From IMG/VR virus record IMGVR_UViG_3300045988_153208: a DNA stretch of 25,827 nt. One strand, 5' to 3'. The DNA comes from a virus. Shown here piece by piece: positions 3,101 through 25,827 of this stretch. How positions within the stretch are numbered: position 1 is the first letter of the stretch; the number at the start of each line of letters is the position of its first letter. The position numbers and the translations under genes are program-made. The notes under the pieces were generated by a model. That model was not told the DNA's origin. It searched no databases and saw nothing but the letters and a program-made list of their open reading frames with translations.

Positions 3101-3146
3101 TACACTTGATTATTCCTATTTAATTTTAAAAAATCAAATAGTTTAA

Positions 3147-4813: not shown

Positions 4814-4826
4814 TTATTTTCTCCTA

Positions 4827-4868
4827 AAATAAAAAAATGGGGAAGAGGAATAAATCCTCTCCCCATAA
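4827..4868 (-). terminator. Hairpin GGGGAAGAGGA-ATAAA-TCCTCTCCCC plus U-run on the minus strand, between the major tail gene and the next gene. Possibly a partial terminator that sets stoichiometry.
   Basis: Inverted repeat 4838-4866 with A-run 4827-4837 on plus. Similar element at 10002-10040. Confidence 0.5.
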
Positions 4869-4883
4869 AAAATTTTGATTAAA

Positions 4884-5960: not shown

Positions 5961-5984
5961 AGTGTTATTTCCTCCTTGTATTTT

Positions 5985-7318: not shown

Positions 7319-7340
7319 GTTTTCAATCTCCTTTTACTCA

Positions 7341-8495: not shown

Positions 8496-8755
8496 TACTT
8501 TTTAATCTCCTATAATAAACTAATACATTCAAATACAGTTTTTCTATAAATTGAGAACTCAATATCATTTAAAACATTTAGCCCTTCTAATTTACTAAGC
8601 AACTATAAAAATCGCGGGTCCTAAATAAAAATTTCATTTAAGCCCGCAATTTCAATAATAACTGTATTTAATTGTTTATCCCAATCTTCTTCATTTTCTC
8701 TCATAGGGATTAATTTCCACAGTTGATTAGTTAATCTTACTATATTTTTCTCCAT
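8495..8755 (-). CDS. Small hypothetical protein, about 86 aa. Its stop overlaps the ATG of the downstream gene (TAATG).
   Basis: ATG at 8753-8755. Minus-strand translation MEKNIVRLTNQLWKL... has 3 in-frame TAGs and ends at TAA 8495-8497. Weak RBS. Confidence 0.3.
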
Positions 8756-8783
8756 GACTTCATTAGAAATATCTGTATGATAT

Positions 8784-9371
8784 TTAGTTATCATAAGGAT
8801 AATTCTTATAATGAAATACGCCCCAATTGGATTCGTATTTCCCTTCTACTAATTTACGACGTTTATATAAACGTTGCATATGGAATGATTGTCTCTAACA
8901 CTCACTTAATAAAGACATCAATTTTTGTAAATGATTAGCCTATGAAGTCATTTTAAAATCTGAACCACTATATTTCATACGAGTGTGTTCAATAGAAGTG
9001 ACTTGGCGTTGTACCCAGTTCACCATCATCAATATAGCTAAAATATTAATTTCCTCCGGTGTTAATTCAACTCCAAAAGATGAATGCTCTACCATTACAC
9101 GAGGAGGGCGGATTTCTGATTCTTCATCTGTTTCATCTTCCCACAAAAGACCAATTACAAAATCATCTTCTAATATTTCATCTTCATATTTAATTTCCTA
9201 ATCAATAGTATAATTATAAATATCAAATCTAGGAAATTCAAATTCAGGTAAAATATTTAAAAGTATCGCACGCAAATCTTTAATTGTGTCTTCTGGAGTT
9301 AATTCAATATAAAGGTCATCAGTAATTTTCCCAAGGAAGCGATTATAAATATCAGTGAATTTAGTTCCCAT
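8784..9371 (-). CDS. Putative head-tail connector/adaptor-type protein, 195 aa, with an acidic central patch. Three in-frame TAGs at 9198, 8940 and 8895.
   Basis: ATG at 9369-9371 with AGGAGG. Hand translation MGTKFTDIYNRFLGKITDDLYIELTPEDTIKDLRAILLNILPEFEFP... runs continuously to TAA 8784-8786. Includes ORF-track 8940..9146. Position downstream of the capsid gene. Confidence 0.4.
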
Positions 9372-9392
9372 GATACGCCTCCTATTTATTTA

Positions 9393-9980
9393 TTATTCAG
9401 CAGATTTAGTTTCAGTTTGCTTTACTACTTTGTAAGCATTCCCAGATGTACGACGTCCTGCGGGAGCAGATTCTGTAACACGTCTTTCAGCTGGCTTATC
9501 TGCGATAGTTTCCTTTTTATCATCTTCTTTACTAGCGCGGTCATTTTCAATAGCCTTATCTACGTCAAAACCAGTTTTAGCTTTTAGAGCTTCACGCTTA
9601 GCCATATCAGTAATAGGCAATTGAACAGACATAGTTTTAATCAAATCAATAACCCCAATAGGAGCAAAATCAAGAGCATCTAAAAATGCATCAATAGAAC
9701 CACTAAGAATTAAATCACGCACTTGCTCTTCTGACATATTATATTCAGGCTCACGATGGACATTTAAATCATCAGTAACTTCATTTTCCATAATCTGTAA
9801 GAAATTAGCAATTAACTCACGACCGCCGGGTTGATAAGTCAATTTTTCTAATTCACTAAATGGAATACGCTTTACTTCACCGGGTGCCCACTCACGTCTC
9901 AAGTTACTCTCAGGAATTCTATATACAACAACACTAGTACTTCTATTTTTTACATTAAACATATCTTCAGAATGAATCAT
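9393..9980 (-). CDS. Hypothetical virion protein, 195 aa, basic Ala/Arg-rich C-terminus. No in-frame TAG.
   Basis: Complete ORF in the track. ATG at 9978-9980 preceded by AAGGAG. TAA at 9393-9395. Confidence 0.6.
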   Translation of the reverse strand: MIHSEDMFNVKNRSTSVVVYRIPESNLRREWAPGEVKRIPFSELEKLTYQPGGRELIANFLQIMENEVTDDLNVHREPEYNMSEEQVRDLILSGSIDAFLDALDFAPIGVIDLIKTMSVQLPITDMAKREALKAKTGFDVDKAIENDRASKEDDKKETIADKPAERRVTESAPAGRRTSGNAYKVVKQTETKSAE

Positions 9981-10001
9981 TTTATTATCTCCTTTTTCTC
10001 T

Positions 10002-10040
10002 AAAAAAAATAAGGGGAGAGGGAGTAAATCCCTTCTCCCC
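10002..10040 (-). terminator. Hairpin GGGGAGAGGGA-GTAAA-TCCCTTCTCCCC plus U-run on the minus strand, immediately downstream of the putative capsid gene.
   Basis: Inverted repeat 10013-10040 with A-run 10002-10009 on plus. Sequence-similar to the 4838-4866 hairpin. Confidence 0.55.
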
Positions 10041-10065
10041 TTAAACAATAGTTATATTAAGGTTT

Positions 10066-11175
10066 TAATCAAATAGTACCACTCTTACGGCCATCATAGG
10101 TAACAACCTTACCAGTAATGCCATCATAATTCCAAGTATACATTTGACCCATTAAGGAAGTGTCAACATAAGAGCAAATGTTGTTAGCCAACATACAACC
10201 AACGCCGACCTTCTTATAAACCTGAATCTCACGAGAACGATCGTAATTGCTGAATTCATCAACAATAGTTCCACCCTCGAAAGCAATCTTTACAGGCTTG
10301 CCATCAACACCAGTAGGAATAATCCAAGCATAACCAGGATCAATAACCTTACGAGTATTACTTTCATCTTCGAAGCCCTACTCTAAAATAACAACCTTGG
10401 TTCCCTTATAGGTAGCCAAACGGCCAGTATTCCACAGCTCAGTCTTCATAGCTTCAGTATAACGCCAAGCTTCATTAGGAATCATACGAACAGCAAATTC
10501 ATAAGTACAATAAATAGTAGGAGTACCATAAGCAGAAGCAATGGTAATCAAACGATCCATAGCACCCTCATCAAAACCTGCTGCAGCAACGCGGTTAGCA
10601 GGAGGTAGCTGATTGATAGAAGACTTCAAAGCCAAAGCAACTTCCTTATAAATCAGTTCATCCATACCATCCATAATAATCTTGGTAACTTCAGCAAAAT
10701 CAACACGACCATCTAAGAACTCTTCGAAGCCGATTTGAGCAGCTCCGCCGATAGCAGAGGTACGGACCTCAAAGCTCTCGCTCTCAGCAGGTCCCAGCTT
10801 GAAGACTTCATAGATACCAGCCAGTCCAACACGAGTCACAAACTGCTTAGCACGTGCGCGTGTATTTAGAGGACGACGGAAAATGGGCTTATCACCCTGA
10901 GCAAACTGCTTAACTTCAGCAAACTGCTCATAAGACTGAGAAACCTTCTTAGGAAGAACTTCATCCAAAGTCTCCTCAATCATTGAGAAAATTAGATTTT
11001 TATTTTCACGATATAGAGCATTGGTACCAGCCAGCTCGTTCATCTCATTACGTAAAGTATCGTTCAGAGCCTCATAAGAAAGGTTCTGACCATTATAACT
11101 GTAAGCCACAGGAGAAGAAGGATCAGCCTTAGCAACAGTCTTCATTAAAGCAACTAAATTGTTTCTATCTAACAT
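10066..11175 (-). CDS. Putative major capsid protein, 370 aa. One in-frame TAG at 10378-10380.
   Basis: ORF-track 10378..11175 continues in frame through TAG to TAA at 10066-10068 (315 nt in frame). ATG at 11173-11175 with AAAGGAGAG. Position scaffold-decoration-capsid as in lambda/SPP1. Followed by a strong hairpin. Confidence 0.5.
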
Positions 11176-11192
11176 TATTCTTCTCTCCTTTC

Positions 11193-12128
11193 TTACGCAA
11201 TACGTAGAATCTTAGCGCCACGTTGTCCATCAGGCATAGTATATACCTTAACAACCTGCCACTTCATATCCTGACTCTCATCTTTTACAAGAATTCCGTC
11301 AGCAGCTGCTGGAGCTAAAATATCACCAACAGAAACACTATCTTCATTAATCATATTAGTAGTATAATGATCACCAACATTAGTCTTGAAGACACGAGGA
11401 ACCATTGCAGTGCCTGGAGTCATACGCTTCTCATGATAAACACCAAGCTTCTTATATGGATCATTAGTCCAAGTCAGCTCTTCGTAAATGTCAGCAACAT
11501 CAGTTAGAACCTTATCATAAGCATACTTTACAGGCACAGGAGTCTTAGTCTGATTGGTCTTAGGATCAATCTCATACTCTACACCATTATAAGTAAACTT
11601 ATTGTCCTTAACATCATAAACTTCGCCAGCGATGGTAACAGTCTTTAGACCCTGATCTAAAGCAACAGTGTGCTCAAGCACCTTGTGATCAGCACCAGTT
11701 TCATCAACACCATTCCAGAAACGTCCACCATATTCAACCTCGGTATGCTCCCAATCGTATGGAGAATAAATACGAGCCTGATAGTCGTCCTTTAGCATAG
11801 CAAATTCGCAATCCCACTGCTTAGTTCCATCAGGATGATCGCGATATAACTTAATCTCATTATAAACTAGCATCCACTCGCCCTTGCCAGTAAAATTCAC
11901 TTCACCAATACCATTGGCATTAGCAGCGTAATCATACTTGACAAACTGACCGTTTTCAAGAATATTAATACCCTTGTTAGCAGGCAACTGAGCATAAATT
12001 TGAGCGGTTCTTTGTGCAGACAGGTGATTTGGCTCAACCTGACCATAACCAAACTCAACATACTTAGCCTGTGACTTAGGTGGATTTTTACCAACGCCTA
12101 AACGAGAATTTAAAAAATCCTTAAACAT
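11193..12128 (-). CDS. Capsid-associated protein, 311 aa. Decoration-like by position between scaffold and capsid; could alternatively be the major capsid protein.
   Basis: Complete uninterrupted ORF. ATG at 12126-12128 with AAGGAGG. TAA at 11193-11195. Confidence 0.55.
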   Translation of the reverse strand: MFKDFLNSRLGVGKNPPKSQAKYVEFGYGQVEPNHLSAQRTAQIYAQLPANKGINILENGQFVKYDYAANANGIGEVNFTGKGEWMLVYNEIKLYRDHPDGTKQWDCEFAMLKDDYQARIYSPYDWEHTEVEYGGRFWNGVDETGADHKVLEHTVALDQGLKTVTIAGEVYDVKDNKFTYNGVEYEIDPKTNQTKTPVPVKYAYDKVLTDVADIYEELTWTNDPYKKLGVYHEKRMTPGTAMVPRVFKTNVGDHYTTNMINEDSVSVGDILAPAAADGILVKDESQDMKWQVVKVYTMPDGQRGAKILRIA

Positions 12129-12146
12129 TTAAGTATGTCCTCCTTA

Positions 12147-13736
12147 TTAGTTTTTATTGGCTGATTCTAGAACAGCCTTGACCCAAGCTGGCATTCCAGC
12201 ATCTCTGTCATCATCTAAATTGCTTAAATTATAGGTAGTTGGGCCTTTATCATTATTATCATCATCAAGGTTAAAATTAACCTTGTTGCGAACACAAATA
12301 ACAGAAAGTTTTGCTTCAATATCATCAACAGAATACTTATCAATGTTATCAATAACATCTTTCTTATCATCATCAGACAGCATATAGAATGATTGAATCA
12401 TAGCTTCTTTATCCTTGCGTTCAATACTATTTTTAAACTCAGTTAAAGAAGTATTAGTTTCACTTAGAGTTTTATTTTCAGCCTCTAATAAACTAAATTT
12501 ATTTTGTAATTCTTCATATTCTGCCTTTAAGCTAACATATTCTTCAATTTCATCCAAGGAATACTTTTTCTTTTTCTTTTTATCCTCATCATCTTCTGAA
12601 GGATCGTCATCTTCATTTTCTGACTTTTGACCATTATTTTTAGAAGAACCATCATCTTTTTTGTTCTCAGGGTCGCCAGAATTATTGCCCTTATCATCGT
12701 TTGCCTTTTTATTTTCTTCTTCTTCTTGCTTTTTCTTAAATTCGGCTTCATAAGCTTCAACCGCATCTAAAGCAAACTGAGGCTCTGCTGCTGGAGTATA
12801 AGATTTAGTTACTTCAATTAAACCTTCACCAGGAACAAGACCATCAGAATCACTCAAAGAAAAGTTTAAACGATAATATTTCATATCTCCGCGGTCTTGA
12901 AGAATAGCAAATTTTTGACTATTATCTTCAAAAACGCCATCAATACGATATTTAGAGCAATAATTGTTAGAGCCATCAGGGAAAGCCTTATTTACATATT
13001 CCCATAAAGCACTCCATAGAGAATCTCCGATTTCTACGGCATATCTATTAAACACTTTTGCTCCTCCTTCTTTTAATAATTCTTTTAGTTCGTTCATCAT
13101 TGAGTATAGTTCATTTTTAAAACTATCATCAAATGAAAGAGAAAACTTTGTAATAGAGGAGCCTTCGAAGCAAGGTTCACACTCTTCTCCTAAAATACAA
13201 AGTTTAGAAATAATTGCTTCATTAATAATGAAAAACTACGGCTTTCCATTATTATCTTTCGTCCAAGTTCCATCTAAAGTACCTTCATCGAGCTCCATAG
13301 AATGATTATTGCCTTGCTCAATGATGCGCTTACATTCTGGATATTGGCCGGTCCATAAATATCCTTCAGTCATAAGATATTCATGTTCATTAACGCCATC
13401 ATCTAAAAATTTCTAAAACCAAACCTTGGCACCTAAATCTACAAAACCATAAGGTTTAGTAGTGTCTTTCATTTCAAACTTTCCGTTTGAAATATCAATA
13501 ATTCTATTGTGTTCCTCAAAATCTCCATTAGATTCATTATAAAAGCCAACAATAGGACTGCCAGGGAGACTATTAGCCATCTCCCTCGCAGTTTCTTTAG
13601 AAATAATGCTTCGATTGCGATTTGGTTCATCCCCAACGTAGCAAACTTTAATTTGGCATTTAGAAATCAAAGGATTAATAGGAGTTACATTAATAAATTC
13701 ACAAGGCGTTTCAAGTTTAATACTTTGATGCTTCAT
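12147..13736 (-). CDS. Capsid scaffolding protein fused to an about 210-aa N-terminal domain (possibly prohead-protease-like), 529 aa. In-frame TAGs at 13413 and 13236.
   Basis: ORF-track 13413..13736 and 12147..13100 are in the same frame. Hand translation of 13101-13412 shows no TAA/TGA. ATG at 13734-13736 with AAGGAGG. C-terminal half is highly acidic with coiled-coil-like repeats (EYEELQNKFSLLEAENKTL) and a K-run, typical of scaffold proteins. TAA at 12147-12149. Confidence 0.5.
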
Positions 13737-13747
13737 GATTTACCTCC

Positions 13748-15409
13748 TTAATTCATTGACTCTTTATTTTTTATGGTTTTTTCACTTTTCTAATCATCAG
13801 CCTTTTCAGGTCGCCCAGACTATTTTGTTTCAGTAGTCTGTTTTGTAGTAGTCTATTGATTACTACTTCCTGAATTATTTTGTGTTTTATTCTAATTGTT
13901 TGAACCTTTATTACCCAAAACATCTTGACTACTCATAGTAGAAGACATTAATGGTGGGATCATAATTTCAGTTAATTTCAACACATCATTTTCAAATACC
14001 GCAGTATTTAAAATAAAACTCTAAGAGTGACCAAGAGCAATTTGAGGTAGCATCTTAGAATAACCAAGTTGCGTTTGTTCTTTATATAATTTTGACATTT
14101 CTTTATAATTATATTGTGTAGTTTCAAGCATATAAAATTTAAAACTATATTTCTTATTGTTCGCAACTTTCATCTTTACTATTCTATCAAAAAAAATGTT
14201 AAATTGCAACAACAAGTTTCTAACAGTTGATTCATCATTAAGGATAGACTTCTCTAATGATAAATTACCATCAGTATTAAATAGATTTTGAGAAATACCT
14301 AAATTATTATAAACAGTACGTTCAACTTTTGCTAAATCATCTGTAGTAGTTGTAGTATTTTTATCTGATAAATCAATAGATTGAACATCAGTAAATGTTG
14401 TTAAAACATCAACACCAATAGCTCTTGATAACATAGCAACAGCATTATTATGTATGTCACGAGATTCATCAATATCAAATATTAAATCGCCATTTTTATC
14501 CATTGGAAGTTTTTGAACAATAATTTTTAACAACTTCTACATTTGTTTTCTGCGGTCTAAATCTTGAGCAGCATCTAAATCCATAAGAGCAGGGATAGAA
14601 TTAATAAATGGTGGGACATCACTACCATTAAAATTAAATTTCACACTTAATTCTGGAGATAGTAAATACCAACTTCCACTATAATCTCCCTTAATATCAG
14701 GAAGTAATTTTCCTTTCTTATATAAAACATATCCGCGCTAAAATTCTTCGGGGAATAATTTTAATACGCGCATACGATAATTAGGATCTGGAAACTAATC
14801 AAAAAACCGCATGTCAAACTCAATCGCTGGCATACCAGCCACAAAATATCTAGAACGGCAATAACTAGCAGGTAATTCTTGTAGCATTAAACTATTTGCA
14901 GATTGCACTATATATCCATAATAACAACCATTTTTCATAATACTTTGAGCAATATCACCGCAGATTTTTTTAATATAAGTATTATCTAAATAATTTAATA
15001 ACTTTGAAAAATCTTTTAAAACTTTTTCATCTTTTACTGTATCATCTAAAATCTCTGGAGCGACATACCAATCATATCTATACAAATAAGCAAAATAATT
15101 ACATACTCGCTCATAAATGCCGCTTATATCATAAAATAAATTAGAAATTCTACGCATTTCAACAATATCACGATTTATCATAGCTCGTAATACATCATTT
15201 TTAGTGACCATGCGACATGGTCCACGACGATTAGGATATAGCCGAGCAAATGACCCTAAATCTAATACAGCATCATCTAATGTTTGAACCCCAACTTTTA
15301 TTTTACGATATTCTGTTGGATCAGCAGTTCGATAATCACTTGTTCCATTGCTGATATTAAATCCTTTGGAGTGGATGATTTCCTAACGTGATAATTCTTT
15401 AGTATCCAA
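13748..15409 (-). CDS. Portal protein, 553 aa, with a Q/T/N/S-rich C-terminal tail and multiple in-frame TAGs.
   Basis: Putative TTG start at 15407-15409, 7 nt after AAGGAGG. Same frame as ORF-track 14795..15211 and 14021..14533. Hand translation continues to TAA 13748-13750. Located between terL and scaffold. Sequence FYDISGIYERVCNYFAYLYRYDWYV is portal-like. Confidence 0.55.
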
Positions 15410-15421
15410 AATTCCACCTCC

Positions 15422-15778
15422 TTAATATCCAGCTAATTGCATTATATAATCATATGTAATAAGATTTTCATCTGTATAAGGAATCTCTATTAATTTAAAA
15501 TCATGTAAAGCACAAAAACGTCGTTTTTGATTATCATTATATTGTTGTTGATATAAACCTTTTTTACCACCAAATTTTGCGCTAGGCTCATAATGCTATT
15601 TACCCTAATATTCAATAATAAAATCAATTCTACCATCATCATCAAAAACGACAAAATCGAAACGTAAGGGTCTGCCACTTGGTGCCTTCAAATCTGGGAA
15701 AATATACTCCATCTTAAATGGTAATTCAGCTTGTCGCAAAATCTCTTCAATTTTAATTTCGCCTCTAGACGCTCTCAT
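15422..15778 (-). CDS. Small Vsr/DUF559-like (PD-(D/E)xK) endonuclease, 118 aa. Possible free-standing homing endonuclease between terL and portal. Two in-frame TAGs.
   Basis: ATG at 15776-15778 with GAGGAGG. Translation ...LRFDFVVFDDDGRIDFIIEY[TAG]GK[TAG]HYEP... carries a D..(I/V)E..G..H-type motif. TAA at 15422-15424 overlaps the portal RBS. Confidence 0.35.
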
Positions 15779-15788
15779 AATTACCTCC

Positions 15789-17522
15789 TCAATTCAAGAA
15801 ACACCAATCTTTAGCATTAAACTTTTTACGTTTCTTCTTTTTATCTTCTTCTAATTTTAAATAATATAGTCCATATTCAAAAGCAGAAAATTTATCTTTT
15901 CGGATACTTTTATTTGCTTGTTTCAGGATAATATTTACTCCTTCAGTTTCTTCACGCAAATTCATCATTTCTTCTTTTAATATGGAAGTTAATGTAAATG
16001 GTTTTAATTCTTCTGCCCTCTATTCTGGAGTCATAGTTTGACCTTTCTTTTTAGCAAGAAGTTTATTTTTTGCTACGCGCTCATCAATTAAAAATTTCAC
16101 TTTTCCAGAAGCAAGTTGTGATTTAGCAATCGCGTGAGCTTCTGTATTAAGTGGCGCATTAGCTTTTATAATATACATAGCATCTAATACTGTATTAGAT
16201 GTTTTATATTTTTTATAAAATAAATCATCGTCATTAACAACACCAAAATCAGGGAAAATTTCATTGGTTTCAGGATCAATCTACGTCTTAACCATGTAAT
16301 CAATTAAACCAATTCCTAAACCATTACCATCAATTACAATTCTATCAGCATTATATTTATAATATAATTTTTTTAATTTAATAGTTTGGTCTTCAAAATG
16401 TTCATCAGATAATGTATATATATTCACTAGACTTTTAATCGACCCACCTTGTGATTGTGGAGTTACTTTAAATACACAAATAACTGAATCGCATCCTTTA
16501 CGACCAACGTCGACAGCAAGTACATAAGATGCTAATTTTGAATTACGCCCGGATGCTTCATATTCAGGCTAATTTAATATTCTATTTCTATCAAATATTT
16601 CAGCATTAAAAAATGCATCTTCTACAGTGCCAGACCATTTACTTTCATATTCTCGATCAAATGAACTTTCATTGAACGTTCCGTCCATTTTTAGGTCTTT
16701 AATAAAATTCGCATCTAATAATTTCATTAAAACAGGAATACGATAAGTACCACCCATAATAATAGATTGCTAAGGTTTAACAATCTCCCAAACTAATAAT
16801 TGGATTAATTTATCATAGGGGAAAGTATTTTTATATCCAGCAGTAGTAATATAAATTTGAGATTTATTAAGAGTTTCATCAGGTTGAGTAGTACCATCCA
16901 TACACATACGAGAAATATTCATTGTAGGAATAATAACTTGTGATAGAATATCACCATCAACACCAACACACTCTTCAATTAAACCACCATGGCGACGTTT
17001 ACCACGAGAAGACTCTCTTGCAGCAATATTATCAAAATATGAACCATTTTTAAATACATATTTAACATAATCTTTACCTTCAAGAGTTTGACCACGGCGC
17101 CAATCTATTTCTTTCTAAAATGCAGGAATAAGAGTACAAATTTCTTGAACTTTTTCTTTTACAATTCCAGCCGCTTGTTCTTTACCTCCAGAAGTAATAA
17201 ATAATTTACATCTGGGATATAAAATCGCACGACACATTAAGACCATCATTGACAAAAAAGATTTTGAATAAGCACGAGGGAATACAGCATAAATATATTT
17301 ATGACGCATCGCAGCGCGCAAAAAGATTCTCTAATAAAAATAGAGTTTAAAATGTTGAGGGCCGCCATCAGGTCCTGCCATGAAGTCGATAAACATATCT
17401 GGGTATTCTCTCCAAAAGGCTATGTACTATCTTGCTTCTGGTATAATTGCACGAAGACGGTCCTCTGAAATTCCAATCTTTTTACGCTTCTAAGATAAAT
17501 CAAGTAAATCCTATAAAGCCAT
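15789..17522 (-). CDS. terL: Terminase large subunit, about 577 aa, with multiple in-frame TAGs.
   Basis: ATG at 17520-17522 (AAGGA RBS). Same frame as ORF-track 17115..17321 and 16569..16757. Contains a Walker-A-like motif (AVFPRAYSKS), an ..RHGGLIEE.. segment, and a C-terminal nuclease-like region. TGA at 15789-15791. Confidence 0.6.
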
Positions 17523-17523
17523 A

Positions 17524-18720
17524 TTATCCTTCTAAATTTCTTAAAGTCTGAGCATCTATTTCAGATTCTTCCTCAAGGAAATCATTATATTCAATTAAAT
17601 CTTCATCTTTAAGATGATCGATTTCCTCCATCGTTAAATCTTCTTCAATATCTTGGTCTTCTTCTTTATTTTCTTCTTCTTGCATTTTCTTAATAGCCCC
17701 TTCAATGAGATTACCTAGATTCATCTCTTCAGTGACTAATGTGTGTGTATAATTCTTTAAATCTTGTAAAGTTTCATCAACTTTATCTTTTGGACCTTCT
17801 GTATAATACCGAGGGATAAATCCTTCAGTCTCACACATGGCTACTAATTCTCCAATAGAATCAAATGCTTCTCCTGTATCTGCTTTGTTTTGAGCGGCGG
17901 TGAAATTACCTGATTTCATTAGACTATCATAAACCTTGCTCATCTTTTGGAAACCTTCGATATCACCAATATCGATCAACTAGTTTGCTTTTAAGGATGT
18001 CTTACAAATTAATTTTAATGTATCAATATGACCAGCGCCGCGGATATCATAAGAACTCATCATTTCTTCATAGAGTTGCTCTAGTTTAACCCATTCTTCG
18101 GGTTTATACGCTTTACCCCACTTCATACGAAGATATAAAATATCTTCTTCTGTTAAATCGAGGTCATCTGCTGGGTCATGTTCAATACCATTCTATTGAT
18201 CAAAATAATCATCACCATCTCTAAAACGTTCTGGTAATTCAGGAGTGTAAGGTTTTAATTCTTCTTCTGGAATAGCGACAGTAGATTTAGCAATAGCTGT
18301 TGCTATTTGCTGGGCATCATAACCTTGTCGTTTCATAGTTTGTTCTAATTTATTATTAGCCACTTCCTATAAAAACTCAGAATCTTTCCATCGATAATCT
18401 CTATATTGTTTAAGTTTCATTTTGGACAAATATCTACCTAAAATACTCATACCAGTTAATTTAGATTTATCTTGTCCATATTTTACCATCAATTTACTCC
18501 ACTCATCTGGAACATAAGGTACATCAATTTCTTGTAGAATCCACATATAAGTTTCTGGATTCCAATTATCTACAAGCATTGTAATACATTTTTTACATTG
18601 AGGGAGTTTTCCATCATTTGGATATTTTTCTAAATTATTAGATGTATAAAACTGGTCAGCGCCCATAGTTCTATTACATCGTTCGCAATAATATACTTTT
18701 TTATCATTATCTACAGTCAT
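17524..18720 (-). CDS. 398-aa protein with an N-terminal Cys4 zinc ribbon (CERC..x23..CKKC) and a very acidic C-terminus. Possible terminase small subunit or DNA-packaging partner. In-frame TAGs at 18367, 18193 and 17980.
   Basis: ORF-track 18367..18720 and 17524..17979 are in the same frame. Hand translation of 17980-18366 shows no TAA/TGA. TAA at 17524-17526 sits immediately before the terL ATG. Confidence 0.4.
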
Positions 18721-18756
18721 AATTTTCCTCCTTATATCTATCCAATAACAGGCATC

Positions 18757-19827
18757 TCAAAATTATAACTGTTTGCCCTTGTTTTTAGCATTACGGCATT
18801 TTTTACAAATACTATAATAACCATCTTTACTAGTTTTATTTTTGCTAAAATATTTATTATGTGCTAATTTAATTTGCCCACAGCGACTACATTTTTTATA
18901 TTTACCTTTTGCTTTATGTAAATAATAATCATATAGGTATTGGTCTTCAGCCGCAGAGGCGATTAATTTTGGAATTTTATTGCGCCATAAACTAGAAATA
19001 TATTCTAAACTATGAGTAATATTAAATTCCTCTTGAATTTTCTTTTGAATGTCTATATTCTATAATCCATCAATTTTATATTCAACTATTCTATCATATA
19101 AGGGATAATCTTTAAGAGCAATGGTACATAAATTATCGAAATCTTCCATAATATACCATAAATCTCTTTCAAAATCTCCCCAACTATCTTGCTTTAAACG
19201 AGAATAATTACATAAAATTGCAGAACATACTCTAGGGTCTAAGAGTGAAACGCCATCCGGAATTGGATAACCATCATCATCAAAAATGCAAGTCGTGTCC
19301 TCTAATGGAATAAAATTTCTTGAACGAGTAATTTTAGTCATAACAATTGGACGACGAACTGCATTTTTAATAACATACTAATCTTTACGCATTTCAATAA
19401 TAGCACGTTTAATTATAAATGCTTCGCGTCCTTCACTAACTCGTAATTTGGCTTCCCAAGTAGTAATGGCGTCTCTTAACTATTTTAAATGAGGTATTTC
19501 TTCTATATCTTTTTTAGTAATTGTAATCTTAGGCTAAAATATTGTATTTTTATTTTCAGTAATTAAATTATAAATTCCATCTTCGCCATTCTCAAATTGG
19601 GAAACAAGACCTTCAAAAGATGTTTCACGCTTATTAACTGTTGCCATACGATTATCAGTTAATAATTTACGCTCCTTTTTCTCTTGTTTCTCCATACAAA
19701 GAATGATATAGTCCCCTAATATTTCTAAATATCGAGGAGAGGGGTCTGGGGTTTCCTCTAATATTTTCTTGACTAATTCATTTCTTTCTTCTGGAGTTTG
19801 TAAGGAATAATCTAATTTTATCATCAT
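18757..19827 (-). CDS. 356-aa hypothetical protein with a C-terminal Cys4 zinc ribbon (CSRCGQ..x17..CKKC). First gene of the leftward operon. Four in-frame TAGs.
   Basis: ORF-track 19534..19827 and 19060..19341 are in the same frame, joined through TAGs at 19534, 19480 and 19378. TGA at 18757-18759. ATG at 19825-19827 with GGAGG. Confidence 0.45.
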
Positions 19828-19852
19828 TACCTCCAGATTTTTTTACGTCTTC

Positions 19853-21203: not shown

Positions 21204-21521
21204 ATGGAAGATGGAAAAAATTATTTTGATATTGTAATGCGAGAAGGCCAAGCAATAGTTCATAATGAAGGTTCTATTCATTAGGTTGATAGTTTAGGCC
21301 GTCTTGTTTTTCCTAAAAATTTAAGACAAAAATATGGTATTACTCCTGGTGACCGCATGGAATTTTATACTATTGAATATAATGGTGAAGTTTATGTTGG
21401 AGTGCGAGTGAGTAAACGATATGGTAGTAGAATAGAGTATTTACGCGCTAAAGAAGTATTAGATGATTTGGGAATTGAGATTCCTCAAAAACTAACTGAT
21501 GCTATTAATGGAGTAATGTAA
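21204..21521 (+). CDS. AbrB/MazE/SpoVT-family (swapped-hairpin) DNA-binding protein, 105 aa, with an in-frame TAG at codon 27 (21282-21284).
   Basis: GGAGGAG RBS. Hand translation MEDGKNYFDIVMREGQAIVHNEGSIH[TAG]VDSLGRLVFPKNLRQKYGITPGDRMEFY... carries the classic VDxLGRxVIPKexR..GI..GD motif. TAA at 21519-21521. Absent from the ORF track because of the TAG. Confidence 0.55.
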
Positions 21522-21522
21522 T

Positions 21523-21746: not shown

Positions 21747-21956
21747 TTCTTTTTACCGTTATCTGAATTGAAAAAAGTTTTGGTGAGAGTTTGTACCAGC
21801 CAAACAAAAAAATAAAAATCAAAAAAAATTTTTTCCCGAAACCCACCCCCCCGGTCGGTTTTTATCTGAGAAAAAATCTGAACACTATCGAGACCTTCTT
21901 GGGCTTGGCGCACGCGGAAAGGCTAGACCATCCCCAATACAGCCCCTCAACTCGCA

Positions 21957-21981
21957 GGACCGCGAATGGCTGTCGCGGTCC
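21957..21981. other. Perfect 9-bp stem-loop (GGACCGCGA-atggctg-TCGCGGTCC) with no U-tract, about 60 nt upstream of the tiny-peptide promoter.
   Basis: Inverted repeat read directly from the sequence. Confidence 0.5.
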
Positions 21982-22041
21982 TCATTCACAATAAATACAA
22001 ACTCCACAAAAAATCTCTCGCAAATTTGTGTATTCTGCCAA

Positions 22042-22070
22042 TAGACACGCATCCTGAAATCTGGTATAAT
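22042..22070 (+). promoter_or_regulatory. Promoter TAGACA-N17-TGgTATAAT driving the 31-aa peptide gene.
   Basis: TAGACA at 22042-22047, TATAAT at 22065-22070, with an extended -10 TG. Confidence 0.5.
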
Positions 22071-22095
22071 AGTATTATCAAAGGAGGAATGGTCT

Positions 22096-22191
22096 ATGTC
22101 TATCATCTACAAAGTCGTGCGCTTCATCACCGCGGTCGCTGTTGTCGCGGGCACTGGCATCCTGATGTGCCTCATCTGCCTCCCTCATTGA
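22096..22191 (+). CDS. 31-aa hydrophobic peptide (MSIIYKVVRFITAVAVVAGTGILMCLICLPH), its own transcription unit. Small membrane peptide, possibly type-I-toxin-like.
   Basis: AAAGGAGGAA RBS 8 nt before ATG 22096. TGA at 22189-22191 lies inside the terminator stem. Confidence 0.5.
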   Translation: MSIIYKVVRFITAVAVVAGTGILMCLICLPH

Positions 22192-22204
22192 GGGAGGTTT
22201 TTTG
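22179..22204 (+). terminator. Intrinsic terminator CCTCCCT-cattg-AGGGAGG plus T6.
   Basis: Perfect 7-bp GC-rich stem followed by TTTTTT. Confidence 0.7.
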
Positions 22205-22210
22205 TTGCCC

Positions 22211-22291
22211 TAAGATTGTTAAAAATTTAACGATGTAGCAAGATTGTTAAAAGATTAACAATGTAGCAAGATTGTGAAAGATTTAACAATC
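22211..22291. repeat. Three tandem about 28-bp repeats (tAGCAAGATTGTTAAAArtTTAACaATG), each containing the palindrome TTGTTAA-N4-TTAACAA.
   Basis: Copies at 22211-22235, 22236-22263 and 22264-22291, read directly. Confidence 0.8.
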
Positions 22292-22295
22292 ACTC

Positions 22296-22400
22296 AACCA
22301 AGAGAGGACAAGGACACGCACGGCACAGTGGACAAGGCAAAGCGAGCCAACGAGCGAGCGACCAACAGACAAAGAGAACAACAACACAACACAACACAAT
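22296..22400. other. About 100-nt tract almost devoid of T on the plus strand (A/C/G only; CA and CAA repeats, ACAACAACACAACACAACACAA).
   Basis: Direct reading; extreme strand composition skew. Confidence 0.8.
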
Positions 22401-22408
22401 GATAGATA

Positions 22409-22430
22409 CATTGTTAATGTATTAACAATG
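22409..22430. promoter_or_regulatory. Operator-like palindrome CATTGTTAAT-gt-ATTAACAATG (10-bp perfect arms) between the two skewed tracts.
   Basis: Direct reading. Confidence 0.6.
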
Positions 22431-22432
22431 TA

Positions 22433-22505
22433 GTATAGTAGTATGGTATGGTATGGTAGGGTATGGGGTGGGGTGGGCTATGGGTAGTGGGTAGGGAGAG
22501 AGAGT
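22433..22505. other. About 73-nt C-free G/T/A tract with TATGG/TAGGG repeats and a G-quadruplex-type motif (GGGGTGGGGTGGGCTATGGGTAGTGGGTAGGG).
   Basis: Direct reading; four or more GGG runs separated by 1-5 nt. Confidence 0.75.
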
Positions 22506-22726
22506 AGACCAACAATAAGAGATGCGGACGCGCTTCCCACCGGTCGGCTCACCGGGAACCGCGCACAACAAATCTAATGTAAGTATTCTATTTCTCTTTT
22601 GGGTTCATCATCGTTAACGGCCCTAATCGCCCAAGAATAAGCCCTCGCACAATTGCCAAACAACACAGCAGGGCAGGCGCTGAACCGCGCGTATCCCGCA
22701 ACACACAGCTCTCACAGAGGAGCGAG

Positions 22727-22753
22727 CAAGATTGTTAAAAGTTTAACAATGTG
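22727..22753. promoter_or_regulatory. Operator-like palindrome copy (CAAGATTGTTAAAAGTTTAACAATGTG).
   Basis: Matches the repeat consensus. Confidence 0.55.
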
Positions 22754-22840
22754 AGAGCCAAGAGCAAGAGAGTAAAGAGTGCGCTTGCACAGGTAGCAAG
22801 GAGGATACACACGGCACAGTTGATACATTCGCTGACCGAG

Positions 22841-22866
22841 CAAGATTGTTAAAAAATTCACAATGT
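22841..22866. promoter_or_regulatory. Operator-like palindrome copy (CAAGATTGTTAAAAAATTCACAATGT).
   Basis: Matches the repeat consensus. Confidence 0.5.
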
Positions 22867-22890
22867 GTGGATGTGGTGAAGTCGCTGTTT

Positions 22891-22911
22891 AATTGTTAAA
22901 AATTTCACATT
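22891..22911. promoter_or_regulatory. Degenerate operator-like copy (AATTGTTAAAAATTTCACATT).
   Basis: Partial match to the consensus. Confidence 0.4.
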
Positions 22912-22990
22912 CGCTGTTGGATGCCGAACACGGTCGCAACGCCCCAGACTTCACCACATTAAAGTGTTAAAGAAAAAAAATTGCAAATGC

Positions 22991-23012
22991 GATTGTTAAA
23001 ATAATCACAATC
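22991..23012. promoter_or_regulatory. Operator-like copy (GATTGTTAAAATAATCACAATC) about 40 nt upstream of the promoter at 23054.
   Basis: Matches the consensus. Confidence 0.5.
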
Positions 23013-23053
23013 TTCATCCCGAAAATAAATAGGTTATTTTTGAAAAAACCTCT

Positions 23054-23081
23054 TGACAAATTGCCCTATGTGTGCTACAAT
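23054..23081 (+). promoter_or_regulatory. Promoter TTGACA-N16-TGcTACAAT for the two-gene operon 23112-23550.
   Basis: TTGACA at 23054-23059 and TACAAT at 23076-23081. Confidence 0.55.
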
Positions 23082-23111
23082 GATTACAGTAAAACAAAGG
23101 AGGACGATACA

Positions 23112-23348
23112 ATGTCTAACATCTATGGAGTCTGCTACACCACGAAAGAGCCTGTTGTCTACAACAGAGGGACACAGTGGGAGAAAACCTGTTCCGATTT
23201 CCTGTTCGTTCAGGCAAACAAGGACAATGGCACAAAGCTGGTGGACAAGCTGAACGCTATGCTTGCCGCAGGTGTGGAAAAGTACGAACTGCTGGACATG
23301 ACCAAGATTGACCATTTCTATCTTGACAAGTCCGAGGAAATGTATTAA
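23112..23348 (+). CDS. Hypothetical small protein, 78 aa.
   Basis: AAAGGAGGAC RBS and ATG at 23112. No in-frame TAG. TAA stop. Confidence 0.6.
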   Translation: MSNIYGVCYTTKEPVVYNRGTQWEKTCSDFLFVQANKDNGTKLVDKLNAMLAAGVEKYELLDMTKIDHFYLDKSEEMY

Positions 23349-23361
23349 GGAGGAACTGACA

Positions 23362-23550
23362 ATGACACGCACTATCGCTAATACCTACATCTGTATCAAC
23401 AACGAGGGACAGATGCTCTCCATCATTGCCCGCACGGGCAACGAAGCCCATAACATCGCAATAGGGTTTTTGCGGAAAGCAAACATCGTGAGCGTTCGCC
23501 GTGTATTCAAGTCTGGCAAGCTGGGCAAGGAAATTCTGAAAATTAAATAA
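23362..23550 (+). CDS. Hypothetical small basic protein, 62 aa.
   Basis: TAAGGAGGAA RBS and ATG at 23362. TAA stop followed by the terminator. Confidence 0.6.
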   Translation: MTRTIANTYICINNEGQMLSIIARTGNEAHNIAIGFLRKANIVSVRRVFKSGKLGKEILKIK

Positions 23551-23554
23551 AATA

Positions 23555-23584
23555 AACAGGGCGCAAGCCCTGTTATTTTTTTTA
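23555..23584 (+). terminator. Intrinsic terminator AACAGGGC-GCAA-GCCCTGTT plus T9 (GNRA tetraloop).
   Basis: Direct reading. Confidence 0.75.
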
Positions 23585-23603
23585 TAAAATGCGAAAAAAA
23601 CTA

Positions 23604-23632
23604 TTGACAAATATAAATAAGCGTGTTATAAT
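23604..23632 (+). promoter_or_regulatory. Promoter repeat copy P1: cTATTGACAAATATAAATAAGCGTGTTATAAT (TTGACA-N17-TGtTATAAT).
   Basis: TTGACA at 23604-23609 and TATAAT at 23627-23632. About 90% identical to the copies at 24022 and 25281. Confidence 0.6.
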
Positions 23633-23664
23633 GAATACAGAAATTAAGAAATGAGGTACACAAA

Positions 23665-23853
23665 ATGAAGAACATCTATGAAATCGAGAACATCATCGAC
23701 GAAATCCCCGCTGATGATTGGGCTGGCATTTGTAATCTGATGGACTACTACTATCAGTCGAATTTCTCCGCTGACGCTGAACAGAGACTGGCAAGGGCAA
23801 TCGCTCCTTACGGCTTGACCGCAGAGGAAATCCTGACCTGGGACGCTGAATAA
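23665..23853 (+). CDS. Small acidic protein, 62 aa.
   Basis: RBS AAATGAGGTACACAAA and ATG at 23665. TAA at 23851-23853 lies in the terminator loop. Confidence 0.55.
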   Translation: MKNIYEIENIIDEIPADDWAGICNLMDYYYQSNFSADAEQRLARAIAPYGLTAEEILTWDAE

Positions 23854-23868
23854 GCGTCCTATTTTTTT
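23841..23868 (+). terminator. Terminator GGACGC-tgaataa-GCGTCC plus T7.
   Basis: Direct reading. Confidence 0.6.
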
Positions 23869-23876
23869 GCTGTTGG

Positions 23877-23896
23877 ATTGTTAAAATTTTAACGAG
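23877..23896. promoter_or_regulatory. Operator-like palindrome copy (ATTGTTAAAATTTTAACGAG) between the terminator and the antisense promoter.
   Basis: Matches the TTGTTAA-N4-TTAAC consensus. Confidence 0.5.
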
Positions 23897-23933
23897 CATC
23901 GTCGCGCTCATCAGGCACGTGGCGCCCCGAAAT

Positions 23934-23963
23934 ATTATACCACAACAGTCCACCAGTTGTCAA
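23934..23963 (-). promoter_or_regulatory. Minus-strand promoter (TTGACA-N18-TGgTATAAT) firing antisense toward the 3' end of gene 23665..23853.
   Basis: The rc of 23958-23963 is TTGACA. The rc of 23934-23942 is TGGTATAAT. Confidence 0.4.
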
Positions 23964-24021
23964 GAGAAAAATACGAAAATTTCGCACAAAATTTGCTATC
24001 CCGATTTGTATAGTTTGCCAA

Positions 24022-24050
24022 TAGACAAAATGAAATAAGCGTGTTATAAT
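24022..24050 (+). promoter_or_regulatory. Promoter repeat copy P2: TAGACAAAATGAAATAAGCGTGTTATAAT.
   Basis: TAGACA at 24022-24027, TATAAT at 24045-24050, with extended TG. Confidence 0.55.
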
Positions 24051-24083
24051 GAGTACAACAAAACAACAAAGGAGATACACACA

Positions 24084-24392
24084 ATGATTAACATTCGTTC
24101 TATCCGCAAGCTGGGCAACAATGACGGGCTGACCCTCAAAATGGGCAAAAAGGTAAACTATAAATCCGGCTGGCAAGTTGCCACAGAGGGCATCGAGTGC
24201 AAGACCGCACAGGAAGCCATTGACGCGGTGAGAGACTACGGCGGCAATTGTGGCGTGTGGTTCAGTGAGGGCGTGTATTACATCGACAAAAGCAAGCGCG
24301 TGGCGACAAAGCGTGAAGCTATGGAAATCGGCAAAGCGTGTAATCAAATTTCCGTGTTGAAATGGGCAACTATGACGCTTGCCTACTGCTAA
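24084..24392 (+). CDS. Hypothetical protein, 102 aa.
   Basis: AAAGGAGATACACACA ATG. TAA stop followed by the terminator. Confidence 0.6.
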   Translation: MINIRSIRKLGNNDGLTLKMGKKVNYKSGWQVATEGIECKTAQEAIDAVRDYGGNCGVWFSEGVYYIDKSKRVATKREAMEIGKACNQISVLKWATMTLAYC

Positions 24393-24396
24393 AATA

Positions 24397-24423
24397 ATAG
24401 GGCGAAAGCCCTATTTTTTTTTG
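24397..24423 (+). terminator. Terminator ATAGGGC-GAAA-GCCCTAT plus T9.
   Basis: Direct reading; GNRA loop. Confidence 0.75.
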
Positions 24424-24443
24424 AAAAAATTTCAAAAAAGGTA

Positions 24444-24472
24444 TTGACAAATCCCGAAATAGGTGCTATAAT
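24444..24472 (+). promoter_or_regulatory. Promoter TTGACA-N17-TGcTATAAT.
   Basis: TTGACA at 24444-24449 and TATAAT at 24467-24472. Confidence 0.55.
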
Positions 24473-24502
24473 TAAACCATCAAAAGAGAGGAGCTAAACG
24501 CT

Positions 24503-24694
24503 ATGACAAACTTTGAACAGTATCTCGAAAACCTGATGGGTATGAAGAAAGCGGAAATCATCAATGAGGGCATCACCTGGGGCATCTGGGCGAACACCGA
24601 GGGCAACAAAGCCGAGTTGATGAAATGGAAAAAAGTTCTGCTGGCGCGTTCCCTCGCCGATAGGCTGGAAAGACTGGAAAGGCGGGGCTACTAA
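24503..24694 (+). CDS. Hypothetical protein, 63 aa.
   Basis: AGAGAGGAG RBS and ATG at 24503. TAA stop. Confidence 0.6.
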   Translation: MTNFEQYLENLMGMKKAEIINEGITWGIWANTEGNKAELMKWKKVLLARSLADRLERLERRGY

Positions 24695-24695
24695 G

Positions 24696-24722
24696 ACAAG
24701 GGCGAAAGCCCTTGTTTTTTTT
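24696..24722 (+). terminator. Terminator ACAAGGGC-GAAA-GCCCTTGT plus T8.
   Basis: Direct reading. Confidence 0.75.
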
Positions 24723-24773
24723 ATATGGCATTATGCCCATAATTCGGTTGAAAATTTTGGTGATTTTGCCTAT

Positions 24774-24801
24774 TGACATTCTGCCCCATTTGTGTTATAC
24801 T
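24774..24801 (+). promoter_or_regulatory. Promoter TTGACA-N16-TGtTATACT with no ORF immediately downstream. It transcribes into the GC palindrome and toward the next cassette.
   Basis: TTGACA at 24774-24779 and TATACT at 24796-24801. Confidence 0.45.
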
Positions 24802-24804
24802 CGG

Positions 24805-24831
24805 TCGCGCGCCCACGGTCCTGGCGCGCGA
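24805..24831. promoter_or_regulatory. GC-rich palindrome TCGCGCGCC-cacggtcct-GGCGCGCGA lying between face-to-face promoters.
   Basis: Perfect 9-bp inverted repeat. Confidence 0.6.
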
Positions 24832-24839
24832 AATTTACC

Positions 24840-24868
24840 ATTATACCATGTCCCAGCAATTTTGTCAA
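24840..24868 (-). promoter_or_regulatory. Minus-strand promoter (TTGACA-N17-TGgTATAAT) facing the 24774 promoter and firing antisense toward gene 24503..24694.
   Basis: The rc of 24863-24868 is TTGACA. The rc of 24840-24848 is TGGTATAAT. Confidence 0.45.
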
Positions 24869-24926
24869 TAGGCAAATCAAACAAAAATCATACATTCCAA
24901 ATCCCGAAATTTGTGCATTTTAACTA

Positions 24927-24955
24927 TTGACATTCATACGCCCCTGTGCTATACT
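24927..24955 (+). promoter_or_regulatory. Promoter TTGACA-N17-TGcTATACT.
   Basis: TTGACA at 24927-24932 and TATACT at 24950-24955. Confidence 0.55.
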
Positions 24956-24984
24956 GTATACATAAAACAGAGGAGGTCATGAGT

Positions 24985-25257
24985 ATGACGCGTGAGTACA
25001 AGATTAGGTTCATCGACAGCGAGGCGCAGTATAGCGAGACTGCTACTGCTCAGTGGGACACCGACACCAGTATATGCGATTTCCTTGAAGAACAGCTGTA
25101 TATTCAGTGGGAACTGCGCCCTCTGGAAAGATACTGGCAGAGAGAGTTCTGCACCAAAGGCTGGACGCGGTTTATATATGGTCTATATGAGCAGTTCTCC
25201 GTGTCTTATGACTGGGACAACTCCAATATCATTACCGTTGAAAAAATCCGAAGCTAA
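24985..25257 (+). CDS. Hypothetical protein, about 90 aa (alternative start ATG 24979).
   Basis: AGAGGAGG at 24971-24976. The ORF track's longer N-terminus (from 24946) lacks an RBS. Confidence 0.55.
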   Translation: MTREYKIRFIDSEAQYSETATAQWDTDTSICDFLEEQLYIQWELRPLERYWQREFCTKGWTRFIYGLYEQFSVSYDWDNSNIITVEKIRS

Positions 25258-25270
25258 TTCGGATTTTTTC
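25245..25270 (+). terminator. Terminator TCCGAA-gctaa-TTCGGA plus T6, overlapping the stop codon.
   Basis: Direct reading. Confidence 0.6.
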
Positions 25271-25280
25271 ATTTTTTCTA

Positions 25281-25309
25281 TTGACAAATACAAATAAGCG
25301 TGTTATAAT
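25281..25309 (+). promoter_or_regulatory. Promoter repeat copy P3: TTGACAAATACAAATAAGCGTGTTATAAT.
   Basis: TTGACA at 25281-25286 and TATAAT at 25304-25309. Confidence 0.6.
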
Positions 25310-25338
25310 TGTATTATCAAATGAGGGAGGTATTCAAG

Positions 25339-25560
25339 ATGGAATACTCAGTAGTAGTCAATAATGTTGAGGTCGTGCGCGTGAGCGGTGATGAAGCCGC
25401 GTGGAACAAATTTGAAACGGCGTGTGAGCTGGTGCGGCTGATGCTGGCTGATGGCGGTTTTGGTGAAGCGTGGGCAGAACTCCGCGAGATGAACGGCGAG
25501 CCTATCGCCCGCTTTGATGAAAACGGTATGAGCGAGTGCGGCGCAGTCCGCGGAATGTGA
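25339..25560 (+). CDS. Small acidic protein, 73 aa.
   Basis: GAGGGAGG RBS and ATG at 25339. TGA stop overlaps the next RBS. Confidence 0.55.
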   Translation: MEYSVVVNNVEVVRVSGDEAAWNKFETACELVRLMLADGGFGEAWAELREMNGEPIARFDENGMSECGAVRGM

Positions 25561-25570
25561 GGTGCGACAA

Positions 25571-25768
25571 ATGGACGCTAAGGGATTTACATTTTGCGGC
25601 GGGGCTGATGAACGGGATGTTCTCCGCTACGGCGAGTATCTGACCGATGAACAGTATACCACGTGGGATAGCCACTATTACCGCCTGCGCGCTATCCGCT
25701 ACAATGGCAAGCTGTACTGGCACAAGATGGTGGACGGCGAACTGGTTGAATTTAAGGTTTTGAAATGA
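25571..25768 (+). CDS. Hypothetical protein, about 65 aa, translationally coupled to the upstream gene.
   Basis: GAGGTG 6 nt before ATG 25571. TGA at 25766-25768 lies inside the terminator. Confidence 0.5.
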   Translation: MDAKGFTFCGGADERDVLRYGEYLTDEQYTTWDSHYYRLRAIRYNGKLYWHKMVDGELVEFKVLK

Positions 25769-25793
25769 GCCAAATTTTGGCTCATTTTTTTTG
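25766..25793 (+). terminator. Terminator TGAGCCAAAA / TTTTGGCTCA plus T8.
   Basis: Direct reading. Confidence 0.7.
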
Positions 25794-25805
25794 TGCATTT
25801 TGACT

Positions 25806-25827
25806 ATTGACAAAATAAGCATTTTTA
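25806..25827 (+). promoter_or_regulatory. Start of another promoter-repeat copy (cTATTGACAAAATAAGC...), truncated by the window end.
   Basis: TTGACA at 25807-25812. Shares the ATTGACAAA..ATAAGC motif of P1-P3. Confidence 0.4.

Follow-up and report, generated by a model that had tools for sequence, protein, structure and literature searches.

A minus-strand promoter at positions 23934-23963 of the analysed phage DNA (25,827 nt, hereafter the window) is, to judge from its sequence, a genuine and selectively maintained promoter for the host primary-sigma RNA polymerase. This promoter, which we call P(-), is by the same evidence a member of a family of back-firing non-coding promoters located at gene-cassette boundaries in uncultured gut-type phages. 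We tentatively interpret it, with somewhat less than even confidence, as an operator-gated convergent promoter and boundary element.

The minus-strand promoter and its family

The first-pass annotation of this DNA had proposed a promoter at this site, and both of its elements were indeed found (TTGACA-N18-TGGTATAAT, a 12 of 12 match plus TG). The -35 hexamer TTGACA occupies positions 23958-23963 and the extended -10 element TGGTATAAT positions 23934-23942 (TG at 23942-23941, TATAAT at 23939-23934), both on the minus strand. The 18-nt spacer and the TG agree with what is expected of sigma-70/sigma-A extended -10 promoters (16-18 bp, TG). Transcription is predicted to start at the G residues 23926-23928, 6-8 nt past the -10 element, which is the usual -10 to +1 distance, and to proceed through a GC-rich initial transcribed region (23897-23929, approximately 70% GC in +1 to +20). 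The pattern TTGACA-N13-15-TGNTATAAT was detected five times in the window, always within 23604-25309, against 0.00 copies expected from 100 dinucleotide shuffles.

For comparison, 12 viral contigs encoding relatives of the neighbouring 102-aa protein were used. Seven of them (L001-L007) share 85-94% DNA identity with the window across the region, and the -35 hexamer, the -10 hexamer and the TG of P(-) are unchanged in all seven, the -35 hexamer being invariant in both copies of P(-) present in L005 as well. The base between TG and TATAAT varies (G in the window, C or T in the two L005 copies). In the second of these copies (L005b), approximately 6 of 18 spacer positions (~33%) are identical to the window in an alignment read by eye, with the spacer length kept. 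Fixed hexamers and TG, combined with a spacer free in sequence and set in length, are the pattern of a working promoter, and we infer from it that P(-) is probably active. Conservation of the hexamers in relatives had been named beforehand as a test of the promoter reading; the hexamers are kept and the reading stands.

The start region of P(-) folds with z = -0.83, and an equally good fold was obtained for 36 of 200 shuffles; the median for the pattern-retrieved promoter set was z = -0.67. A 5' hairpin in the P(-) transcript was rejected, as the fold is no better than that of shuffles and each copy folds differently. The start region (23897-23929) looks like a decayed form of the hairpin found in a sister module.

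This sister module (24773-24868, both strands) consists of a plus-strand promoter (24773-24801) which faces a minus-strand promoter (24868-24840) across a hairpin (24805-24831). The promoters are perfect or near-perfect, with 38 bp between their -10 elements and starts located approximately 25 bp apart. The minus-strand one is perfect and lies just past a 63-aa gene and its terminator, back-to-back with the plus-strand gene promoter at 24927-24955. The hairpin has a 9-bp GC stem, and across ten module copies 94% of alignment cells are paired, compared with 27-44% at slid registers. Five of the nine pairs changed on both sides, and none of 500 shuffles reached the observed covariation score. 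Such a supported hairpin is confined to face-to-face modules. As for P(-) itself, the nearest facing promoter (23604) starts approximately 288 bp away; with ~100 bp taken as the limit, only the sister module (24773/24868) is arranged face to face.

P(-) is in turn back-to-back with the divergent promoter of the 102-aa gene (24084-24392), which is located at 24022-24050 on the plus strand (TAGACA-17-TGTTATAAT). The distance from -35 to -35 is 59 bp, and the same spacing separates 24868 from 24927 in the sister module. Gene promoters partnered with back-firing ones are imperfect (TAGACA at 24022, TATACT at 24927), whereas stand-alone gene promoters are perfect.

Two further observations concern such modules. 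The contig of L004 ends inside the sister module, at window position 24848, which may be an assembly break at the repeat. At 21957-22035, a 9-bp GC hairpin (GGACCGCGA...TCGCGGTCC) is followed by a decayed-looking back-firing promoter, both upstream of the first promoter of the high-GC island (22042-22070, TAGACA type).

When viral contigs were scanned for the promoter together with five downstream bases, 26 loci were retrieved, which come from many samples. Approximately three of the 26 look like chance, and most of the others share features outside the search pattern: their start region is GC-rich, their upstream region is conserved and a facing promoter is often present. We then surveyed 287 non-redundant strong TG-extended promoters from the window and 38 loci. 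A stable fold in the first 35 nt was present in 63 of the 287; a Shine-Dalgarno sequence with an ORF follows in 7 of these 63, compared with 148 of the remaining 224. The mean GC content of the start region is 0.71 in this class and 0.37 for gene promoters, and P(-) itself has 0.70. A facing promoter is present in 37 of 63 cases, mostly with 31-39 bp from -10 to -10, an immediate terminator in 7 of 67, and a canonical terminator 30-230 nt downstream in only 7 of 63. In the window family, in both L005 copies and in an unrelated, AT-richer contig (L033), Rex-type boxes take the place of these obstacles. In most members, an obstacle is found within ~30-60 bp: a Rex-type operator, a facing promoter or an immediate terminator. 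A further contig, L025, has all genes on one strand except for one small ORF, and at least eight back-firing promoters pointing the other way, each of them back-to-back with a gene promoter; a tRNA-like stretch noticed there was not confirmed by ARAGORN. Our literature search found no description of such back-firing promoter modules.

A Rex-type operator and a possible boundary role

P(-) is directed at the 3' end of an acidic 62-aa gene on the plus strand (23665-23853), and a palindrome (23877-23896) is present between the two, both as annotated previously. The hairpin of the intrinsic terminator of this gene had been described as bidirectional-capable, and this description did not hold. The terminator (23839-23868, plus strand) comprises a stem at 23839-23861 and a T-run, but its minus side reads GGTCAGGA, with one T in 8, and the terminator scan lists the plus strand only. 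The first terminator past P(-) in the minus direction is located approximately 375 nt away, at 23574-23555, with none nearer; the scan lists this one on both strands (23555-23574). As the terminator of the 62-aa gene is one-way, an unimpeded P(-) transcript would run ~375 nt in antisense to 23574-23555.

Sites resembling ATTGTTAAAANNTTAACAAT, the palindrome at 23877-23896 included, number nine between 22215 and 23896, against 0.49 expected. The core of the palindrome, TTGTTAAAATTTTAACGA (23878-23895), corresponds to +33 to +50 of the P(-) transcript and has one mismatch to the clostridial Rex consensus TTGTTAANNNNTTAACAA (PMC5367854, PMC4600107). When the general Rex half-sites TTGTGAA/TTCACAA (PMC5355995) were allowed, nine window sites with at most one mismatch were found and none was expected. 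The box copies in L005 match the Rex consensus perfectly, L004 contains a perfect TTGTGAAAATTTTCACAA, and the relatives hold boxes at the same positions, with half-sites toggling between T and G. A Rex-type box is located beside P(-) in all three contexts, i.e. in the window and in both L005 copies. A change in one arm has no matching change in the opposite arm, which argues for a protein site and not an RNA stem; RNA hairpins formed by the palindromes were rejected on the same grounds. The box occupies the same place (+33 to +50) as the core of the facing promoter does in the sister module (+31 to +59).

The boxes resemble known Rex operators (ROP) in the 18-bp palindrome TTGT(T/G)AA-N4-TT(A/C)ACAA, including the clostridial TTGTTAA variant and the toggling to TTGTGAA. 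They differ in placement. Known Rex sites lie over the promoters of host genes for fermentation and respiration, whereas the phage boxes are clustered (nine per genome), lie after terminators or within a non-coding transcript, and never overlap a promoter; the box at 23878-23895 is more than 100 bp from any plus-strand promoter start. Because the boxes are off promoters, their binder may be something other than Rex. They could be sites for a phage protein, for example the product of the AbrB/MazE-fold gene at 21205-21522, or else origin iterons or sites of an origin-binding protein. The unrelated contig L033 contains seven Rex-type boxes and two back-firing promoters reading into boxes, and at one locus the order is as in the window: gene, terminator, boxes, GC region, P(-), P(+). 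Our literature search found no description of Rex boxes in phage genomes.

Eight of the boxes are concentrated in ~800 bp of non-coding DNA at 22216-23010. Three of them, spaced 28 bp apart in tandem, come right behind the terminator of a hydrophobic 31-aa ORF (22096-22191). Two tracts are flanked by the boxes, one of ~100 nt that has no T (22295-22400) and another that has no C and is rich in G-runs (22430-22510, GGGGTGGGGTGGG). The region may serve as a sponge for Rex, as a gated leader or as something like an origin. In L033, the box-rich non-coding region includes a long (TAA)n microsatellite (8600-8650).

Whether P(-) fires, what its module does, what binds the operator, whether a roadblock forms and how the neighbouring genes respond are all deduced from sequence, and the following model is put forward in that sense. 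Each back-firing promoter is located right behind the terminator of the previous cassette and back-to-back with the promoter of the next one. When the operator is occupied, polymerase starting from P(-) would be held within the first 20-30 nt, and the held polymerase together with the repressor would form a block separating the two cassettes. When the operator is free (for Rex, at high NADH), transcription from P(-) would pass the one-way terminator and produce ~375 nt of antisense RNA over the 62-aa cassette, up to the bidirectional terminator at 23574-23555. Such read-through would lower expression of the 62-aa cassette by polymerase collision and RNA pairing. Only two of the approximately seven cassette boundaries in the window have such a promoter, which means that it is not a general requirement for insulation.

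The face-to-face promoter switches of coliphages 186 and P2 (pR/pL, Pe/Pc) likewise contain strong inward-facing promoters close enough for interference, as in the sister module. However, theirs are single lysis-lysogeny switches flanked by repressor genes, whereas here several copies are present per genome, between ORFan cassettes and without flanking regulators, and the P(-) at 23963 has an operator where the facing promoter would be.

If P(-) and its relatives are active, strong promoters would serve as boundary or interference devices, and not for gene expression, in the early regions of large uncultured stop-codon-recoded phages. For annotation, approximately one in five of the strongest promoters of these genomes should be disregarded when downstream genes are called, and for synthetic biology the modules are compact candidate insulators. 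Their coupling to Rex-type sites hints at an early programme that could be set by the NADH/NAD+ status of the host. An extended version, which we consider unlikely, is that the host redox sensor Rex is built into the early programme of the phage: boxes in back-firing units would act as NADH-responsive roadblocks by which cassettes are insulated or antisense-silenced, and the array of eight boxes at 22216-23010 would in addition titrate Rex or control the entry of transcription into the G-rich, possibly origin-like region. If true, this would be a new phage control module, made of a dead-end consensus promoter and a host metabolic repressor site, and common to several TAG-recoded phage lineages.

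A simpler alternative, possible although rather doubtful, is that P(-) is purely a boundary element or RNA-polymerase parking site. A tightly bound and poorly escaping polymerase would insulate the cassettes, or would tune the back-to-back gene promoter via shared upstream DNA or supercoiling, and the RNA and operator gating would be irrelevant. Poor polymerase escape is an established property of consensus promoters. The back-firing promoters are always found at a cassette boundary and against plus-strand transcription, they have no coding capacity, and their GC-rich start regions are unlike those of gene promoters. Facing promoters, mostly at 31-39 bp, would exclude double occupancy, judging from standard footprint sizes, and the contrast between imperfect partner promoters and perfect stand-alone ones fits as well. 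On the other hand, a parking site leaves unexplained the conserved downstream operator (window, L033) or the covarying RNA/DNA hairpin, and most boundaries are without the element. Furthermore, in solitary modules the transcribed strand has twice as many G.U pairs as the other one (32 versus 15), and in face-to-face modules the two are even (19 versus 20); both counts include related sequences, and the excess is a hint only that the RNA matters.

The 62-aa gene, a possible antisense RNA and cassette shuffling

The 62-aa early gene towards which P(-) points encodes a hydrophilic protein (pI 4.05, GRAVY -0.29, 13 acidic and 3 basic residues), and its substitutions are found mostly at third codon positions. 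Together with its promoter (23604-23632) and terminator, it constitutes an indel cassette at approximately 23585-23868. The whole cassette is missing from L005 by a clean indel between two T-runs, so that the operator and P(-) there abut the bidirectional terminator. In the same contig, the promoter and operator module is present twice, behind different terminators and other genes. As the module is kept where the cassette is absent, its antisense pairing with the 62-aa gene is not obligatory.

This bears on the possibility of a dedicated cis-antisense sRNA overlapping the 62-aa gene at its 3' end, in the manner of lambda OOP with cII or of a type I toxin-antitoxin (TA) system, a reading which we regard as improbable. 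Lambda OOP, expressed from the promoter Po, is a discrete terminated RNA of 77 nt dedicated to cII. P(-) is similar to it, and to PRE/PaQ, in being a host-polymerase promoter which lies past the 3' end of an early gene and points back to give an antisense transcript; its start at ~23927 is 74 nt past the stop codon of the 62-aa gene, a convergent position like that of OOP. It differs in that no terminator follows, that it is not tied to one gene and that an operator lies inside the transcribed region. The first-pass annotation had described the geometry of a 3'-overlap cis-antisense RNA. The convergent orientation was borne out, with the promoter reading across a copy of the operator into the gene, but a discrete sRNA is not predicted, since the terminator in the window has no T-run in the minus direction and P(-) has no intrinsic terminator of its own that would give a discrete short RNA. 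The promoter in L005b meets a bidirectional terminator after ~100 nt, which would give a discrete small RNA, and the layout in L033 (gene, bidirectional terminator, boxes, P(-)) speaks for the same. Against this, a canonical terminator within 230 nt is present in only 7 of 63 family members, the module sits behind different genes and the 62-aa cassette is an indel.

As for the analogy to type I TA systems that had been drawn, convergent sense and antisense transcription meeting at a terminator is indeed shared with those of Firmicute prophages (txpA/RatA, par of pAD1). However, a hydrophobic toxin, a dedicated antitoxin terminator and a conserved pairing of gene and RNA are all lacking here. 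The acidic and hydrophilic 62-aa protein is unlike a membrane toxin, and joint inheritance is not observed, as L005 keeps the module without the cassette and with other genes preceding it. The protein properties and the clean indel together argue against a dedicated type I TA or 3'-antisense pair, and we dropped the analogy.

The 86-aa minus-strand ORF at 23693-23953, which had been suspected to be just the antisense frame of such a transcript, is non-coding. Its start lies upstream of the predicted transcription start, and in a comparison of orthologues 20 of 25 substitutions fell on third positions of the sense gene, i.e. second positions of the minus ORF, which is the wrong phase for a coding frame. 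A small minus-strand protein (86 or 35 aa) was rejected as well: its start is either upstream of the transcription start or preceded by a Shine-Dalgarno sequence at only 3 nt, and no such ORF was flagged in L004 or L006.

Alternatively, the product of P(-) could be a short GC-rich RNA of ~25-40 nt with a 5'-triphosphate, acting either as a primer or as a decoy that engages a nuclease or sensor of the host; we see little probability for this. Members in L019, L030 and L025 have a terminator at once and would produce RNAs of ~30-40 nt, and the hairpin covaries in face-to-face modules, where both strands would be transcribed. However, stems differ from copy to copy within one genome, indicating that no single target is mimicked; moreover, no significant fold was detected in the copy belonging to P(-), and there was no Rfam match. 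The differing stems also led us to reject the hairpins as mimics of CRISPR repeats, which presumably differ from them in the 3' flank too.

The cassette array calls to mind the PeSL cassettes of T4-type phages, in which each small ORFan comes with a strong promoter of sigma-70-like type, AT-rich DNA upstream and a terminator formed by a stem-loop (PMC2839356, PMC4122927). The ORFans of the window likewise have repeated strong early promoter and stem-loop terminator motifs, and relatives differ by cassette indels or replacements at repeats. PeSLs are, however, unidirectional, whereas P(-) is an opposite, non-coding promoter; GC-rich start regions, facing promoters and operators are outside the PeSL description, and the phage analysed here is TAG-recoded and probably has a Gram-positive host. 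That the element is a recombination linker or relic, i.e. an inverted promoter/terminator junction repeat that mediates cassette shuffling as PeSL motifs do and has no regulatory role, is hardly probable: the mosaicism in close relatives, where indels end at T-runs of terminators and at promoter repeats, an upstream element shared with plus-strand promoters (I9/I19) and the decayed-looking copy at 21957-22030 are in its favour, but kept hexamers and TG around a randomised spacer indicate a working promoter and not a homology block, and the design recurs in other samples, in phages that are unrelated.

The differences between close relatives comprise whole-cassette indels and duplications (window 23584-23868 compared with L005; 5346-5473 in L002/L003). 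Their edges coincide with terminator T-runs and promoter repeats, which resembles modular shuffling of the PeSL type.

Phage context

The late genes of the phage are located on the minus strand at 1-19800, where the GC content is ~30%, and include a tape-measure fragment matching PF10145. When TAG is read as sense, 14 long minus-strand ORFs tile 3737-19842, and 16 reading frames of at least 200 aa are found in the whole window compared with 5 in the standard code; from this, the late genes appear to use a TAG-recoded code, in which TAG is a sense codon. The frame of the AbrB/MazE-fold gene (21205-21522; PF04014, E = 2.7e-6) stays intact only when its in-frame TAG is translated, and TAA is the stop codon of every early cassette that was inspected by eye. 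No Pfam match was obtained for two late proteins translated through TAG.

From ~21840 the GC content climbs to ~44%. The step coincides with a conserved boundary motif, AAAATCAAAAAAATTTTTTCCC(G/A)AAACCCACCCCCC, at 21815-21855 of the window. The same motif is present in the otherwise unrelated contig L033 (7975-8015), and there too a non-coding region rich in boxes follows. The high-GC island of L001 seems, judging from promoter type, to end at ~12200, past another face-to-face module.

The region 22000-25827 is a plus-strand array of small ORFans. Each has a near-perfect promoter and an intrinsic terminator to itself, and promoter and terminator families are repeated within the array (D1, D5, D11). 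For nine small early proteins, neither a Pfam match above the cutoff nor a significant PHROG match was obtained. Megablast of 22000-25827 found no match among cultured phages and plasmids, blastn of the promoter module found none among phages, and no relevant RNA family was detected in Rfam at gathering and E-value thresholds. Canonical TTGACA/TGnTATAAT promoters and GGAGG ribosome sites probably point to a Gram-positive host; the host search among genome contigs returned only tiny MAG contigs of mixed taxonomy.

Finally, recurrent motifs were noticed. The motif TCCCGAAA is present on the plus strand at 21834, 23017, 24452 and 24902, i.e. in four copies against 0.6 expected, and in many unrelated contigs a longer form, ATCCCGAAAT(T)TGTGCA, is again present where divergent promoters adjoin, in the DNA between them. 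The motif may be a factor site or a recombination linker. In L026 (~545-605), L031 and L036, three perfect DnaA-box sequences (TTATCCACA / TGTGGATAA) are located between divergent promoters, where they fill the place taken in the window by GCACAAAA...TTTGT.
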